Source: Thermoplasmatota archaeon
GTDB lineage: Archaea > Thermoplasmatota > SW-10-69-26 > JACQPN01 > JAJPHT01
Assembly (NCBI GenBank): GCA_041658815.1
Contig: JBAZZN010000001.1
Span: forward strand, 1-33,086
Length of the DNA: 33,086 bases
Direction: 5' to 3'
In this document: one piece after another, positions 5,289 to 29,914 of the stretch
Numbering within the stretch: the stretch's first letter is position 1
Layout: every line of letters starts with the position of its first letter
Position numbers and translations under genes: made by a program
Notes under the pieces: generated by a model
What the model saw: only the letters and a program-made list of their open reading frames with translations
Database searches by the model: none
What the model was told of the DNA's origin: nothing

Positions 5289-5696
5289 TCATGGTGGCGC
5301 CCAGAATGGAATGAAGAGGAGCGTGACCATGGCGAGGTCGAAGATGGCTTCCATGATCTCAATGGCTTCGTGTGCCAAGCTGTTCGTGGAAAGGAGAATG
5401 GCGACCAGTGTGCTCTTCATGAAGTGCACGCCGAACGCGGCCGCGATGAATCGGACCTTCCGTTGGCCCGTCCGCTCGGCGGCCCTCCAAGTGAGGATCG
5501 TGAGCGTGAGACTCACGACCGCCACCATACTGACGATCCAGATGCTGAACGATGTAAGGGTCAAGAGGCGCGCCCAAGGAGGATCGTGGCCTGCATGATT
5601 TAACGAGTTGGGTCCGGTCACTCCTGCGCGCGGCGCCTCGCCAAGTCCTGCACTGGCAAGAACATAATTGGACGTCGATTGAACACGTTTTGACAA
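5289..5696 (-). CDS. Small three-TM membrane protein; paralog of 25821..26138
   Basis: TLTILTWRAAERTGQRKVRFIAAAFGVHFMK...EAIFDLAMVTLLFIPF aligns with TLSVLAFRAASKRGNPGLRWVGSAFVVFAIK...LSIGDLIILILLFMPL. An alternative GTG start at 5621 gives 110 aa, close to the 105-aa paralog. That start would also leave the AT-rich 5650-5700 stretch non-coding. Confidence 0.6.
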   Translation of the reverse strand: MSKRVQSTSNYVLASAGLGEAPRAGVTGPNSLNHAGHDPPWARLLTLTSFSIWIVSMVAVVSLTLTILTWRAAERTGQRKVRFIAAAFGVHFMKSTLVAILLSTNSLAHEAIEIMEAIFDLAMVTLLFIPFWAPP

Positions 5697-10065: not shown

Positions 10066-10911
10066 GTGAAGTTAACCTATCTCGTGGCCTACCTGCCAGC
10101 CGTCCTCGGGACCCCCCTCAAGGGGCGCGTGCTTGAGCGGCTGCTCCGTCGCGGGCCGGGGACCGTGACGGAGCTCGCGGCCGACCTCGACGCGACACGT
10201 CAGCAGATCACGAAGGTCGTCGCCGAGCTCGCCCTCTTGGGCGTCGTTCGCGAGAAGCCTGGTGAGGATCGTCGTACGACGGTCGTGAGCATCGACGAGG
10301 AGCACCCCTTCGTCGAGCCGCTACGCGTACTCGCGATGGACGGCGGCACGTGGTACGAGACGCCCGAAGCGTGGCAGGTGCTCCTCGCGCGCCGCTACGG
10401 CCAGGATTGGTACATCGGCGGTTACGCCGCGATCCGTCGCGTCATGCAGCCCATCGACTTCGAAGCGCCCAATGTCCTTGCCAACGTCCGCGCCGCGGAA
10501 GGAAAGCTCGACGTCGCGAGCGCGCTCCAACGCGCGAGCGGCATCCAGCTCCAGGTGCGCCGCATCGAGCACATTCCTCCAGAGGTCGTCGCCGCCCGCG
10601 CGCGCGGCGTCGAAGTCTGGTTCGCGACGCCCGAACGCGGCTTCGTCGAAGCGTGGAAGCTCAAGGAGATCCCGCTCTACGGACTCATGCTCTGCCTCGT
10701 CCAAGGCCTCCACGAGGCCGTCCTCGACCCCACGAAGCTCATGAACGTCGCTCCCGCCGAGGGCATGCAAAGCGAGGTCCCGACCCTTCTCGCGGCAGCA
10801 CGCGAACGCCTCCCGCTCCGTGAGCTCGCCCGGCCGCTGAAAGCAACGCGCGCGCTAAAGCCGAGCGAAAAACAGGCCCTCGAACAGGCGATCAACACGG
10901 TGGTGGGCTAA
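10066..10911 (+). CDS. AbiEi-like antitoxin / wHTH regulator of a type IV toxin-antitoxin system
   Basis: N-terminal wHTH (GRVLERLLRRGPGTVTELAADLDATRQQITKVVAELALLGVV) plus a C-terminal domain. It lies directly upstream of, and abuts, an AbiEii nucleotidyltransferase gene. GTG start at 10066. An in-frame GTG at 10084 lies about 29 nt after the TATA-like TATTAT, so a leaderless mRNA is possible. Confidence 0.65.
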   Translation: MKLTYLVAYLPAVLGTPLKGRVLERLLRRGPGTVTELAADLDATRQQITKVVAELALLGVVREKPGEDRRTTVVSIDEEHPFVEPLRVLAMDGGTWYETPEAWQVLLARRYGQDWYIGGYAAIRRVMQPIDFEAPNVLANVRAAEGKLDVASALQRASGIQLQVRRIEHIPPEVVAARARGVEVWFATPERGFVEAWKLKEIPLYGLMLCLVQGLHEAVLDPTKLMNVAPAEGMQSEVPTLLAAARERLPLRELARPLKATRALKPSEKQALEQAINTVVG

Positions 10912-11871
10912 GTGGCGCGTGTCCTCCTGAACGCCGACGAGAAGGCCGCCGCCCGCGCCCTCATCCAGAAGACGTGGGATGCCCCCAACGTGACGCGCGA
11001 CGCGCTCACGAAGGCGGCCGACCCCTTCGGGGTCAACCCCCGCGAAGCCTACGCGAGCCTCCTCCACCTCGACACTCTGGACGCGCTGCGTGACCTGGAG
11101 TTTCTCGTGTTCAAGGGCGGCACGTGCGTCCAGACGTATCTTCCGCCCGCGTTCCAGCGCATCAGCGTCGACCTCGACTTCAACAGCCGATATCCGCACC
11201 CCAACACGGTCGAGAACGCGATCGTGGATCTCAATGCGCGCCTGCGTGCCGACGGCCGCGCCGCGACCATCCACGGCCTCGAGTACGGCTCGCTCATCCC
11301 CCAAGGTCACGACGAGCACACGGGGACCGTCGCATTCGCGCGCTACCTGCCCACGCCCTTCGACGAGACCGCGATCCTCGCCGGCACCGAGTTCCAAGCG
11401 CGACTCATCCGCGTGCAGATCAACGTGAAGCACCACGAGCTGCCGGCGCTCGATCCAATGCGACGCAAGGTCGAGTTCTTCATCCAGAAGACGCTCCAGC
11501 CTCGCCATGATATCAAGGTCGAGTGCGCGAGCGCCGCCGACCTCGAAGCGGATAAGATCCTAACCATCACGAAGAACGTCGGGGGCTTTGGCCGCGAGCG
11601 CATCAAGGACTTCTACGACCTTTTCGCCCTCAGTCGCACGAAGATCCCGCAGGACCGTGTCCGCGAGAAGCTTGACCGCGTCGCCAAACAGGCCAATGCC
11701 AAACGCGAAGACATCCTCAAGGGCGCGATCGAGCGCGCTGAGGACGTCCGCGCGCAGCACGCGACCGCGAAAGGTTTCGTCACCAGCGCCTGCAAGGACG
11801 GCAAGGTCCTCCTCGAAACGTGGGAGATGGAGATAGACGCGCTCCAAGAACGACTCCGCGCGATGCTCTGA
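10912..11871 (+). CDS. AbiEii/AbiGii-family nucleotidyltransferase toxin (DUF1814)
   Basis: FKGGTCVQTYLPPAFQRISVDLDF matches the family hallmark (KGGTAL..RFSEDLDF, a Pol-beta NTase G-G/S..DxD). A downstream KDFYDL motif is also present. GTG start sits immediately after the upstream stop. Confidence 0.85.
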   Translation: MARVLLNADEKAAARALIQKTWDAPNVTRDALTKAADPFGVNPREAYASLLHLDTLDALRDLEFLVFKGGTCVQTYLPPAFQRISVDLDFNSRYPHPNTVENAIVDLNARLRADGRAATIHGLEYGSLIPQGHDEHTGTVAFARYLPTPFDETAILAGTEFQARLIRVQINVKHHELPALDPMRRKVEFFIQKTLQPRHDIKVECASAADLEADKILTITKNVGGFGRERIKDFYDLFALSRTKIPQDRVREKLDRVAKQANAKREDILKGAIERAEDVRAQHATAKGFVTSACKDGKVLLETWEMEIDALQERLRAML

Positions 11872-11934
11872 CGCAGGCAAGACTCATTCTTCTGGGTCTT
11901 TCAGAAAGACTCGATCTTGTGAGTCTTATCGGCA

Positions 11935-12009
11935 TCAGTCGAACAGACGGGCGACGGCCCGCGCCGTCTCGTTCACGAAGCGCCGTCGCTCGCGGCGTCG
12001 AGTTTCCAT
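11935..12009 (-). CDS. Short ORF, copy 1 of a conserved C-terminal module (...RRRFVNETARAVARLFD)
   Basis: METRRRERRRFVNETARAVARLFD*. Its differences from copy 2 (13061..) in the conserved part are almost all at third codon positions. The longer ORF to 12138 crosses the att-like repeat, so I consider it unlikely. Confidence 0.4.
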   Translation of the reverse strand: METRRRERRRFVNETARAVARLFD

Positions 12010-12017
12010 TACCATGG

Positions 12018-12059
12018 TTTGCCCAACAAATCCGTCTGTCGAGGTTGAGTGGGGTGAGC
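12018..12059. repeat. att-like direct repeat holding the last 10 nt of tRNA-Phe plus its 3' flank
   Basis: 12047-12059 (gagtggggtgagc) is identical to 16099-16111. The upstream block ccaac-aaatccgtctgt matches ccaaccaaatccgtttgt at 16074-16091. Confidence 0.7.
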
Positions 12060-13064: not shown

Positions 13065-13318
13065 TCGAAGAGACGAGCGACCGCCCGAGCCGTCTCGTCC
13101 ACGTACGCCCGACGCGCCGGCGAAAGCTTCGGGGACCGAAACGGGACCCAACCTGGAGGGACTTCGTCAGCTGCCGCCTTCGGCGCCAACGTTGGGCGAA
13201 ACACCTTGACGTTCGAGAGTCGCGGAGCCTCGACGACTGCCCGGCTTGACCGGGCCACCCGACCGACCCCGACCTTGCGAGCGCTACGACTTCGGCTGGG
13301 CATGCACTTCACACTCAC
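13061..13318 (-). CDS. Small ORF, copy 2 of the ...YVDETARAVARLFD module
   Basis: 85-aa ORF ending SPKLSPARRAYVDETARAVARLFD*. It converges on the Doc-like gene with a 4-nt overlap. The pattern of synonymous differences from copy 1 supports coding. The start is uncertain. Confidence 0.45.
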   Translation of the reverse strand: MSVKCMPSRSRSARKVGVGRVARSSRAVVEAPRLSNVKVFRPTLAPKAAADEVPPGWVPFRSPKLSPARRAYVDETARAVARLFD

Positions 13319-13404: not shown

Positions 13405-14067
13405 TTGAGCCGTATTGAAAGACTCACTTTTCCAAGCCCTGAACTTGGCGTCCGCAAGTTGGCGTACGCATGTCTCCCGGTGAGGCACGCGCTCGACTTC
13501 GACCCTCCATACGCGATCCCCGTCGTTTCGCCCAAGCTCACGAAGCGGCCGCCGCGCCCCTCGCCTACGATCATCTGGCGCGACTACGATCCGGAGGACG
13601 TTGGCAAGACCACCCTTCTCTTCCCGACCTGGGCCAAGGATGACCCCGACCAAAGCAAGCGCACGCTCCCGACGCTTCACCCGAAAGAGAGCCTCGCGAT
13701 CCTCGCCGCGACAGGAGACTCTCGTTTGACGGAGGCCGTCTTGCGCACCGCAAAGAAGCCAGATATCAAACGCGAAAGCGTCGCCACTGCCGCGAGGCGG
13801 CTCGCCATCGAGCCGCCCTCGCGCCGCCTCCACTATCCGAACTCAATTGTCTTGCTAAAGTGGCTCCTCCGGTTCGCGGAGACCGCGCGGGCGATGAGCG
13901 CCAAGGAGCGCATGACGCAGGATCTCCTCGGAGGCGGCCCCGCGGGATATCCGACGCGACGCATCGCGAAGTGGCGCGGCGCATGGTCGCCGAACTGGGT
14001 CCGCCATCGCCGAGCACGTCATTGTCACGAAGGCCGTCGCCTACGGCGACTGCCTCGGCAAGCATGA
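13405..14067 (+). CDS. Hypothetical protein (element cargo)
   Basis: 220-aa ORF with a TTG start and no recognisable motif. The Arg-rich C-terminal third may not be genuine coding sequence. Confidence 0.35.
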   Translation: MSRIERLTFPSPELGVRKLAYACLPVRHALDFDPPYAIPVVSPKLTKRPPRPSPTIIWRDYDPEDVGKTTLLFPTWAKDDPDQSKRTLPTLHPKESLAILAATGDSRLTEAVLRTAKKPDIKRESVATAARRLAIEPPSRRLHYPNSIVLLKWLLRFAETARAMSAKERMTQDLLGGGPAGYPTRRIAKWRGAWSPNWVRHRRARHCHEGRRLRRLPRQA

Positions 14068-14129
14068 CGCGCGACGGCCCGGGCCGTCTCGTTCACGAAG
14101 CGCCGTCGTTCGCGCGACAAGCGCGGCGC
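14067..14129 (-). pseudogene. Truncated copy 3 of the small-ORF module
   Basis: Manual translation gives APRLSRERRRFVNETARAVARH.... It lacks the LFD* end, has an in-frame TAG just upstream, and diverges from copies 1 and 2 exactly at 14066/14067. Confidence 0.4.
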
Positions 14130-14840: not shown

Positions 14841-15040
14841 CTGCCACCGATGCCCAGCGCCGCGAGCATCGCCTTCGTCTCGGCGAGGACCTCCTGCTTC
14901 TTGCGATCCTGAATATCCTTCTCCGCATCCGGCGAGATCGGCCGGCGGCACCGCTGGCAGAACGTCGTCGTGTGCGGGTTCCGGTGCTCGCAGTACCGGC
15001 AGATGAGCTGCGAGAGTGCGGGCCCCGAGTGCTTGCCCAC
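14792..15040 (-). CDS. Zinc-ribbon domain protein
   Basis: CRYCEHRNPHTTTFCQRCRRPI matches the common zinc-ribbon pattern CxxC-x..NP..x-FCxxC. GTG start. It is in the same frame as the integrase ORF, three codons downstream including the TGA. Confidence 0.5.
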   Translation of the reverse strand: MGKHSGPALSQLICRYCEHRNPHTTTFCQRCRRPISPDAEKDIQDRKKQEVLAETKAMLAALGIGGSYAGGSIVSPGAVGRR

Positions 15041-15046
15041 GAGAGT

Positions 15047-15964
15047 TCAGCCCAGCTTCGCGCGCTCCGTCACCGCGCTGTGACGCCAGACGTGCGGGTT
15101 GCAGTCCTTCTTCAGGCCCGACTTCTTACCGGCGCGGTAGCACCACACGAGGAGCGAGTTGGGGCTCAGCCGCGTGCCGGGCGCGCGGCGGCTCCACGAG
15201 AACCACAACGGCGCCAATGGCTCGTTCTTCTTGGGGTGCTGGTCGATCCACGCCTTGAGGTAGTCCACGCAGTCGAAGACCCGGATGCGCCGCGCGCCCG
15301 TCTTGAGTCCACGCACGCCCTTGGAGAGCGTGAGGACGGCGCTCCAGATGCCGCCTTCGAGTTCCTCGAAGACGACGCTGCCCACGTTCAACGCGCAGAA
15401 TTCGCCCGCGCGGAACCCACTCTCGTACAAGACCGCGATCTCCGCCTTGTCCTGCACGCCCACATGCGCAAGCAGGAGCCGCGCGAGGTCCGCGCGCGTG
15501 ATGAGCGCGTCCGTCGGAATGTGGTCCTCGCTCCGCTTCACCTTGAGGCCTTTCGTCTCGGGCGGGTCCTGGTCGTCCGTGCCCCGCATCCACCGGAAGA
15601 ACGGCTTCAGGACTTCCTTGCGCTGCGCGAGCGTGCGAGGCGCAAGCAGGATCGGTTGCTCCGTGTCCGTCGTCGAGCCATCCACCTTGCGGCTCCGGAA
15701 GAGGCGCATGCTCTTCGCGTTGTTCACGTAGCTGATGACGTCGATCCTCGTCGACGCCTGCAAGTTCCGCATGCCGATGTGCACGCAGAAGCCGCGCAGG
15801 CAGTTCGCGTGAATCGTCAGCGTGCTTGAGCGAAGCCCGACGGCTTGGCGCTCTTGCAGCCACGTTCGCACGACGTCTCGGTTCTCACGCAGGGGGATCG
15901 TCTCGAGGATCCGCTCGATGCGTTCCCACACTTCAGCGTCTGTCTTCGTAGAGATGCTTGACAC
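15047..15964 (-). CDS. Tyrosine recombinase/integrase (XerC/D-like) lacking the C-terminal catalytic-Tyr segment
   Basis: N-terminal SAM-like domain. Catalytic domain has box I Arg (ESGFRAGE), a Lys hairpin (LSKGVRGLKTGARRIRV) and HxxR (HVWRHSAVT). The ORF stops 9 residues later (ERAKLG*), before the expected LGH...Y. Confidence 0.75.
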   Translation of the reverse strand: MSSISTKTDAEVWERIERILETIPLRENRDVVRTWLQERQAVGLRSSTLTIHANCLRGFCVHIGMRNLQASTRIDVISYVNNAKSMRLFRSRKVDGSTTDTEQPILLAPRTLAQRKEVLKPFFRWMRGTDDQDPPETKGLKVKRSEDHIPTDALITRADLARLLLAHVGVQDKAEIAVLYESGFRAGEFCALNVGSVVFEELEGGIWSAVLTLSKGVRGLKTGARRIRVFDCVDYLKAWIDQHPKKNEPLAPLWFSWSRRAPGTRLSPNSLLVWCYRAGKKSGLKKDCNPHVWRHSAVTERAKLG

Positions 15965-16067
15965 GACTCGTCACGTTTCCCGCGGACGGGAAGACCATTG
16001 CGACGCGCGTAGGCAGGCCACTCATCGAACCGCGAGTCGAAAACTCGCGGCCGAGTATGTATTTGGC

Positions 16068-16111
16068 CTTTCGCCAACCAAATCCGTTTGTTCTGTATGA
16101 GTGGGGTGAGC
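16068..16111. repeat. att-like direct repeat overlapping the 3' end of tRNA-Phe copy 1
   Basis: Partner of 12018-12059: a 13/13 identical core plus a conserved upstream block. Confidence 0.7.
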
Positions 16112-16174
16112 CGGGCTCGAACCGGCGACCTCATGATCTTCAGTCATGCGATCTCCCAACTGATCTACCACCCC
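16102..16174 (-). tRNA. tRNA-Phe (anticodon GAA), intron-less, CCA not encoded
   Basis: Hand fold of GGGGTGG-TA-GATC-AGTTGGGA-GATC-G-CATGA-CTGAAGA-TCATG-AGGTC-GCCGG-TTCGAGC-CCGGC-TCACCCC-A. All four stems pair (7/4/5/5 bp), with U33, G37 and T-loop TTCGAGC. Confidence 0.9.
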
Positions 16175-16219
16175 AGTTGGCGTTTGGCGAATGCGGGGAA
16201 GCCTCGAAAGGCTTCCGAC

Positions 16220-16413
16220 CACGGTGAGCCGGGTTCGAACCGGCGACCCCGCGAGCGAAGCGAGCGGCGACGACGCGAGGCGCGCTTCAGCGCGCCGGTG
16301 CCCGGAGGCACGCGTCGGAGTCATGATCTTCAGTCATGCGATCTCCGGACGCGTCTGCGGACGCGTCCTCTCGCGCATCTGCGGATGCGCGATCCCAACT
16401 GATCTACCACCCC
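16220..16413 (-). tRNA. Second tRNA-Phe(GAA)-like gene with two large insertions (candidate non-canonical introns) and a divergent 3' acceptor end
   Basis: Collinear with copy 1 apart from four differences. There is a 49-nt insertion in the D-loop (within 16344-16395; the boundary is ambiguous by 3 nt). There is a 72-nt insertion at 16249-16320, between tRNA positions 44 and 45. The T-loop reads TTCGAAC. The 3' strand TCACCGT gives a G2:G71 mismatch. Confidence 0.6.
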
Positions 16414-16452
16414 AGTTGGCAGACGTCGGATTCCGCTTCCCGTATTTGAGCC

Positions 16453-27160: not shown

Positions 27161-27239
27161 GTTGGAGTCTTGGAGTCTTGGGGCCTTTGTGGGTCTTGGC
27201 GCCACACACGCCAAGACACGAAGACTCCAAGACACCAAC
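27161..27239. repeat. 79-bp palindrome built from inverted arrays of the octamer (A)GTCTTGG
   Basis: Left arm GTTGG-AGTCTTGG-AGTCTTGG-...-GTCTTGGCG, loop CCACACA, right arm CGCCAAGAC-...-AAGACTCCAAGACACCAAC. The outer 19-bp stem has one mismatch; the inner stem is 9 bp. It lies between the ABC ATPase and permease genes. Confidence 0.7.
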
Positions 27240-29665: not shown

Positions 29666-29773
29666 CCACGCTAAGACCCCAAGACGCAAAGAAGCCAAGC
29701 GACCATCGAAGAAGCGACGCCAAGCTTGTCGTCTGCTGGCTTGGCGTCTTGGGTTCTTGGAGTCTTGGCGTGG
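29666..29773. repeat. 108-bp palindrome of CCAAGAC/GTCTTGG octamer arrays centred on AAGCTT
   Basis: Left arm CTAAGACC-CCAAGACG-CAAAGAAG-CCAAGCGA. Right arm GGCTTGG-CGTCTTGG-GTTCTTGG-AGTCTTGG. The termini CCACGC/GCGTGG are complementary. Same octamer family as 27161-27239. Confidence 0.7.
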
Positions 29774-29914
29774 TCGGAACGCGCGCCTGGCCCCAATGCA
29801 TGCCACAGGCGAAACCTTTCCCCTCGGATTTGCGCCCCGGGGCCGGCGCTCCCACAACGCTTAAGCCCGCCCTAATGTTCGATGCGTGTTAAAGTCTCGT
29901 GGAGGTCCTCCGGC

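Follow-up and report, generated by a model that had tools for sequence, protein, structure and literature searches.

The interrupted tRNA-Phe copy (copy 2) in the 33,086-nucleotide stretch of DNA analysed here (the window) is likely to be tRNA-Phe-derived debris lying in the long, hairpin-laden leader of a single working tRNA-Phe gene (copy 1), and not a gene whose transcript is spliced to a tRNA. The debris would consist of two parts, a 5' module that runs from leader position -7 to tRNA position 44 and has a pair of hairpins inserted in its D-loop, and a 3' fragment made of T-arm and acceptor sequence. Its origin most likely lies in the partial duplication or recombination of a leader-plus-tRNA unit at the target of a tyrosine integrase, with lineage-specific deletions then reshaping the product. 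Copy 2 would probably be transcribed from a conserved upstream box as the first part of pre-tRNA-Phe and be discarded along with the leader on RNase P cleavage at position +1 of copy 1. The D-loop insert appears to be a tandem-repeatable unit of 48 nt with two 9-bp hairpins, the pairing of which has been kept between two species.

Copy 1, a clean 73-nt gene according to the preliminary description, is recovered as such by both ARAGORN and Rfam (Table 1), and Rfam scans of the window and of the closest relative (L016) at E≤10 gave no match other than copy 1. Copy 2 (16220-16413, minus strand) has no ARAGORN call and no Rfam match even at E≤10. The 73 nt of copy 1 recur unchanged in L016, and near-identical genes are present in more than 10 relatives. 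The 5' 21-mer of this tRNA-Phe is confined to Thermoplasmatota-type MAGs and soil metagenomes, and the window encodes GatD/GatE, DUF63 and TrmB-type regulators, which are archaeal markers. A gene for an MMPL transporter ends just upstream of the tRNA-Phe locus. The plus-strand ORFs overlapping the tRNA region have no Pfam match and are absent from the assembly's gene-finder calls, and endA is absent from the 33-kb window. Elsewhere in the window, 8-nt tandem repeats (TTGGAGTC-like) occur at 27162-27189 and 29733-29776, 2.5 kb apart, near metal-transport/NikR genes.

Table 1. Features of the tRNA-Phe locus and of the adjoining element, in window coordinates
Feature	Position	Strand	Remarks
Promoter-like box GCTCAAATACGGG	16439..16451	-	immediately follows the MMPL stop codon; copy 2 begins 25 nt downstream
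Copy 2 (blocks A, B and C, tRNA-derived, plus two inserts)	16220..16413	-	194 nt; 45 nt from copy 1
Block A (7 nt of leader, gccaact, plus tRNA positions 1-21)	16393..16420	-	28/28 against copy 1
Insert 1, in the D-loop	16344..16392	-	49 nt; one hairpin-pair unit
Block B (tRNA positions 22-44: 3' strand of the D-stem and whole anticodon arm)	16321..16343	-	identical to copy 1
Insert 2, between positions 44 and 45	16249..16320	-	72 nt; closing stem, two hairpins and a tail
Block C (tRNA positions 45-70: variable loop, T-arm and part of the 3' acceptor strand)	16223..16248	-	25/26 against copy 1
Divergence point, GTGGTCGG in place of CCACTCAT	16215..16222	-	sequence reading; ARAGORN drawing of the in-silico spliced form
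Inter-copy spacer	16175..16216	-	perfect hairpin GGAAGCCT-TTCG-AGGCTTCC (16197-16216), then leader end CCGCATTCGCCAAACGCCAACT
Copy 1, intron-less, functional-looking tRNA-Phe(GAA)	16102..16174	-	ARAGORN; Rfam RF00005, 64.8 bits; no encoded CCA
att core GCTCACCCCACTCA	16098..16111	-	14 nt; 3' end of copy 1; left junction of the element
Tyrosine-integrase pseudogene	14849..15964	-	in-frame stop 15047-15049; 39-aa deletion covering ...SVYTH...; 138 nt downstream of copy 1
att core, second copy (GCTCACCCCACTCA)	12046..12059	-	far junction of the ~4-kb element

The preliminary description had read copy 2 as collinear with copy 1, preceded by the same seven nucleotides and interrupted by inserts of 49 and 72 nt, and our analysis confirms each of these points (Table 1). 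The tRNA part of block A (16393-16413) is identical to copy 1 at 21/21 positions and block B, when the GGA overlap is included (16321-16346, positions 19-44), at 26/26; the collinear identity of the three blocks is far beyond chance. Insert 1 has the order TCGCGCATC-CGCA-GATGCGCGA, GAG, GGACGCGTC-CGCA-GACGCGTCC, and because GGA occurs at both of its flanks there are four equivalent placements of its borders. Its two hairpins are both present and perfect, with 9-bp stems at 16347-16368 and 16371-16392, but the second is 2 bp longer than the span given earlier (16373-16390). The fold attributed to insert 2 is also found, a 6-bp closing stem (CGACGC/GCGTCG) around the hairpins GTGCC-TCCG-GGCAC (5 bp, 16298-16311) and GGCGCGC-TGAA-GCGCGCC (7 bp, 16279-16296), with a 22-nt tail that contains CGCTTCGCT. 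The 33-kb window has 11 perfect hairpins of at least 8 bp, and four of them fall between 16030 and 16392, in 1% of its length. At the 3' end copy 2 reads TCACCGT-G where copy 1 reads TCACCCC-A, giving a G1.U72 pair, a G2xG71 mismatch and G73 in place of A73. Deletion of both inserts in silico leaves a tRNA-Phe that ARAGORN can call and that has a defective acceptor end.

The orthologous locus can be recognised in relatives by the upstream MMPL gene and the conserved box, which has the consensus (G/T)YTCAAATA(C/G)GGG and is kept upstream of tRNA-Phe in all relatives. The MMPL protein is 63% identical to that of the window in L001/L009, 77% in L017/L018 and 87% in L016, where the 4-fold sites are 58.7% identical. 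A comparison of these loci had been proposed in the preliminary description, and at least ten of them carry an intron-less gene only, one tRNA-Phe being present in each of L001/L009, L017/L018, L002/L010/L011, L003, L012-L015, L140-L142 and L144. In the relatives the box lies 60-155 nt upstream of the tRNA and is followed by a GC-rich leader that contains hairpins, usually the invariant TGGCGGCTCC, and CCAACT immediately before +1; TGGCGGCTCC is missing from the window and L014 leaders. A tRNA leader this long and structured is unusual for archaea. Since the box stands 25 nt from copy 2 and no A/T-rich box precedes copy 1, copy 2 would occupy the tRNA-Phe leader, and it is probably a part of it. 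Judging from its position and conservation, the box may act as the promoter from which copy 2 and copy 1 are co-transcribed. The leader end in the spacer between the two copies, CCGCATTCGCCAAACGCCAACT, resembles those of L013, L017 and L016.

Across the clade (L001, L002, L003, L012, L013, L015, L016, L017, L140 and L144) the first GC hairpin of the leader shows compensatory changes, and often there is a further hairpin, whose loop is TTCGCT/GGTTCGCTCC. That insert 2 is native leader is at most a hypothesis. It was suggested by a 13/16 direct repeat (16433->16418 against 16322->16307), of which about two are expected by chance, and by alignments by eye with the leaders of L013 and L003, for which the local alignments have z≤1.7 and are not significant. 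An ancient T-arm relic in the GGTTCGCTCC/TTCGCT loops of all relatives' leaders was significant only in L016. The contig L001 (JAJPHT010000045.1) belongs to a MAG labelled 'Proteobacteria bacterium' and bears the archaeal locus, with the same tRNA-Phe and the same leader; the contig or the bin is probably mislabelled.

In L016 the leader starts with the box, the first hairpin and TGGCGGCTCC, and then has a degenerate piece of T-arm and 3' acceptor sequence (TCCGGTTCGATCCGGCGCGACGGCTCACCAC). Of 1000 shuffles, 19 match the T-arm as well as this piece does, a figure that leaves out the adjacent exact 8-mer GGCTCACC. This piece is followed by CCAACT and tRNA positions 1-21 (21/21) and, at the D-loop site of insert 1, by two tandem 48-nt hairpin-pair units. 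The module ends with AAGATCGCATGACTGA (tRNA positions 20-35), stopping inside the anticodon with no 3' half after it, and a 32-nt spacer then leads to the intact tRNA-Phe. Insert 1 is homologous to the tandem units (local alignment z=14), and insert 2 has no counterpart in L016. As insert 1 is shared at the same site, it is older than the split of the two lineages, and L016 carries its homologue in a fragment that is unable to make a tRNA. The position of a 3'-type piece upstream of the 5' module indicates that the pieces are separable fragments and not exons. A permuted or split tRNA in L016 was considered and rejected, positions 36-48 being absent upstream of the T-arm piece.

The preliminary description had offered, as one of two possibilities, a tRNA pseudogene invaded by GC-rich hairpin elements. 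This is closer to the evidence and essentially right, but the opposite order of the fragments in L016 suggests that copy 2 may be a composite of fragments and not one gene that received two insertions. The arrangements in the window and in L016 could both be derived, by different deletions, from an ancestor with two tandem leader-plus-tRNA units. Several observations sit less easily with an interpretation of copy 2 as debris. The blocks are collinear, and the cloverleaf that they form once both inserts are removed is assigned to tRNA-Phe by ARAGORN; the inserts stand at 20/21 and 44/45, the two points at which a tRNA can accommodate additional nucleotides; the identity of blocks A and B in both species calls for gene conversion or selection; and insert 2 is spanned by a motif resembling a splicing signal, 0.01-0.09 of which would be expected by chance (see below).

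The hairpin-pair module is the only part of copy 2 that is unusual, and mildly so. Three units from two species are available for covariation, one from the window and two from L016, two of the hairpins being a recent tandem copy. All 18 stem pairs (18/18) are paired in all three units and six of them have changed on both sides; none of 500 shuffles reaches six compensatory changes with full pairing, and slid controls pair at 26-41%. Between the species insert 1 is ~80% identical (counted on the alignment), as against 58.7% at 4-fold sites. The linkers (TCGCG/CGCGAGAGG/CCGGA) and the tetraloops are conserved among the units, and the sole non-Watson-Crick pairs are G.U on the tRNA-sense strand, which would be C.A on the other. 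Such perfect pairing, maintained through six compensatory pairs despite the divergence at 4-fold sites, points to a constraint on structure. In both species blocks A and B match the live gene without a difference, with 4-fold sites of the neighbouring gene at 58.7%, and their lack of change while neutral sites diverge needs either gene conversion from the adjacent gene or selection. From these patterns the hairpins would be either a selected leader RNA structure or palindromes maintained at the DNA level, and not introns of the bulge-helix-bulge (BHB) kind.

One may ask whether the 5' half and the hairpin-pair module together form a transcribed leader RNA element that is selected for its structure and not for decoding. 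We regard this as a tentative possibility, rather unlikely as it stands, in which a tRNA half would act as the scaffold for the hairpins. The module would comprise CCAACT and tRNA positions 1-21, one or two 48-nt units (each with two 9-bp tetraloop hairpins) and tRNA positions 19-35, and could serve as a tRNA-mimicking processing or stability element or give rise to a stable by-product RNA. The covariation, the identity of insert 1 above the 4-fold level, the conserved linkers and tetraloops, and the strand of the G.U pairs all argue for it, as does the high local density of perfect hairpins; a position between the box (16439-16451) and the mature 5' end also fits. These patterns come from two lineages and three units, however, two of whose hairpins are a recent tandem copy. 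The module is absent from more distant relatives, its position in the leader differs between the two species, and intrastrand template switching can keep palindromes perfect without selection.

The locus of the tRNA-Phe gene is also a target of integration. The att core at the 3' end of copy 1 and its second copy bound an element of ~4 kb that encodes a DUF8172 protein, ORFs of 195 and 258 aa and the integrase (Table 1), and GCTCACCCCACTCA adjoins homologous integrases in L002, L016, L140-L143 and L145. In comparison with a full-length homologue, P0037 (434 aa), the integrase of the window lacks 39 aa, and homology runs past the stop codon to 14849; with this deletion and the in-frame stop the integrase must be dead. 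The two tRNA copies had been described as lying next to an integrase, which holds for copy 1 in that the gene adjoins it, but the gene is a pseudogene. No relatives of the integrase were found in viral contigs. To the left of 12046 (10066-12045), ACGGATTTGTTGGGCAAA resembles the left end of the element itself, and an AbiEi-like/AbiEii pair comes after it; this suggests a second, tandem remnant, probably one without an integrase. The att repeat, the dead integrase and the tandem remnant together mark the locus as an integration hotspot.

Some further observations concern the elements themselves. At ~150-165 of L145 the att core GCTCACCCCACTCA occurs without a tRNA before it and is followed by a homologous element, like the junction at 12046 of the window; this is consistent with tandem integrations being common. 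A 49-nt repeat is present in three copies on the plus strand of the window (11946-11994, 13072-13120 and 14066-14114), ~1 kb apart and 76-94% identical, two of them close behind the end of an element ORF and the third where a stop and a start codon overlap. A hairpin stands shortly before the integrase start codon in the window (16030-16050), in L016 (~5470-5495) and in L140 (~575-600); its sequence differs and its fold is kept in the three elements (CCGCGAG/CTCGCGG, GGGCC/GGCCC-type and GAGCG/CGCTC), and the structure may have a regulatory role in the element.

Blocks A, B and C are direct repeats of tRNA parts next to an integrase-bearing element, and this raises the question whether the fragments are att remnants of elements whose recombination took place in the 5' part of the tRNA. 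The anticodon loop is a classical crossover site of integrating elements, and it is in this loop that the 5' fragment of L016 ends. The analogy is with the tRNA-Thr of Caldiarchaeum, a locus that has a 5' fragment ahead of the intact gene and that acquired an insert by recombining with a mobile element, an attP that carried the insert being the proposed donor of the 'intron' (Sugahara et al. 2012, PMC3293823). By that analogy, and given the integrase-element hotspot, such an origin is conceivable for copy 2, though we think it rather improbable. In the resident element family the tRNA's 3' end (GCTCACCCCACTCA) serves as att core; copy 2 holds only GCTCACC of this core and sits upstream of the gene, not at the far border of the element. 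The gap between fragment and gene is just 32-48 nt, with no element or integrase in it, and scans of viral contigs for the anticodon arm, the 5' 21-mer and the junction of block A with insert 1 gave no match to the module, a looser hairpin pattern yielding chance matches only.

In principle, the hairpin units could stem from the insertion of a small palindromic mobile repeat, REP/MITE/PATE-like, into a tRNA copy that was already dead, with the GGA at both flanks as a possible 3-nt target duplication and the perfect palindromes and the copy number of one against two as further signs of mobility. We regard this as distinctly unlikely, since the hairpins are not repeated elsewhere in the 33-kb window or among the 19 relatives' loci apart from L016, the insertion site is the same in the two species, and there is no transposase nearby.

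The other possibility raised in the preliminary description was that copy 2 is a rare multi-intron tRNA-Phe gene, from which the archaeal splicing endonuclease and a ligase would remove two non-canonical introns. A BHB was taken to be a helix of 4 bp in which each strand is followed on its 3' side by a bulge of 3 nt, with the cut after the second bulge nucleotide; it was sought at the junctions that regenerate copy 1, and the relaxed forms hBH and HBh' were counted as well. A permissive scan, which returned 245 motifs in 245 nt, was uninformative, and the junction-restricted one was negative except for one shifted motif at insert 2. Neither insert boundary, at which the earlier description had called for such a fold, has a BHB that regenerates the tRNA. 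Insert 1 has none at any of its four equivalent junction placements; the best has the central helix U.G, UxC, G-C, G.U (3/4 pairs, one of them Watson-Crick) without an outer helix, and clashes with the second perfect hairpin (hairpin b). At the junction of insert 2 that regenerates copy 1, one of the four pairs forms. A BHB-like motif shifted by 5 nt, ACUC CG|A ... GGGU CG|C (2+4+4 bp; two pairs in the outer and four in the inner helix), would cut out exactly 72 nt and leave a 73-nt product with the variable loop CUCC. Its chance expectation is ~0.01-0.09, depending on the number of placements allowed, and forcing it costs ~17 kcal/mol relative to the minimum free energy fold, which prefers the 6-bp closing stem and the hairpins.

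In the joined exons the D, anticodon and T arms are intact and the acceptor end is not. The interrupted gene has also not been kept as a gene: L016 alone shares insert 1, and its copy stops at position 35. The only solved EndA of the phylum, that of Thermoplasma acidophilum, is of the narrow-specificity alpha'2 type (PMC6379350). The collinear exon blocks, (almost) identical to copy 1, the tRNA-Phe call on the form spliced in silico and the shifted motif spanning insert 2 are what speaks for a two-intron gene. With no BHB at the junctions, an altered acceptor end, an intact copy 45 nt away and relatives that are all intron-less except for the fragment in L016, the multi-intron reading of copy 2 is not supported, and we consider it very improbable that copy 2 is a functional gene of this kind. 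The suggestion that introns protect such genes from integration does not fit either, as neither insert contains the att core, which is at the 3' end, and the element has integrated behind the copy that has no intron; the locus provides no evidence for intron-mediated protection. A chimera or collapsed repeat is conceivable in a metagenome assembly and is extremely unlikely here, as Logan contig L007 (run SRR8449812) is 100% identical to ENA contig k141_150163 over 5,799 bp spanning the region, two different assemblies though not necessarily different read sets, which excludes an assembler artefact over these 5.8 kb, and as L016, from another sample, has a related but distinct version.

Multiple and non-canonical BHB introns are known from the tRNAs of Thermoproteales, Caldiarchaeum and ARMAN (PMC4090602, PMC6379350). 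Copy 2 resembles such genes in being interrupted at positions other than 37/38 and in having an intron-less version at hand. It differs from them in that its junctions have no BHB or relaxed BHB, its acceptor end is broken, the version in the relative L016 is without a 3' half and the EndA type known from the lineage is narrow in specificity. tRNA fragments that are made at integration sites have been mistaken for genes (van der Gulik et al. 2023, PMC9897764), and the fragments in the window resemble these element-derived partial tRNAs in being direct repeats beside an intact tRNA at an integrase hotspot. Unlike them, they are found upstream, in the leader itself and 45 nt from the gene without an intervening element, do not correspond to the 3'-end att core of the resident element and carry structured hairpin inserts. 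The locus is thus a cautionary case, in which a collinear, intron-like tRNA copy lies by an integrase and one close relative reveals it as fragments. In these uncultured soil Thermoplasmatota tRNA-gene debris would build up not only downstream but also upstream of a tRNA integration hotspot, and its sequence can remain that of the live gene as neutral sites change.

The hairpin-pair module also invites comparison with palindromic repeats, of which the REP/BIME and PATE/MITE types are two classes. Like these it consists of GC-rich, perfect tandem hairpins with conserved linkers in non-coding DNA; unlike them it has no dispersed copies in the window and the relatives' loci and is found at one fixed site in two species. 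In haloarchaea a tRNA-like structure upstream of 5S rRNA is cut by tRNase Z. The fold of copy 2 as a whole, in contrast to that structure, is not conserved between the two species, but the two are alike in that a putative tRNA-derived fold stands in a non-tRNA part of a precursor. We know of no leader element of this type described for archaeal tRNA genes, and should the module turn out to be transcribed and under selection, it would add one modest new case to the structured leader elements of tRNAs.
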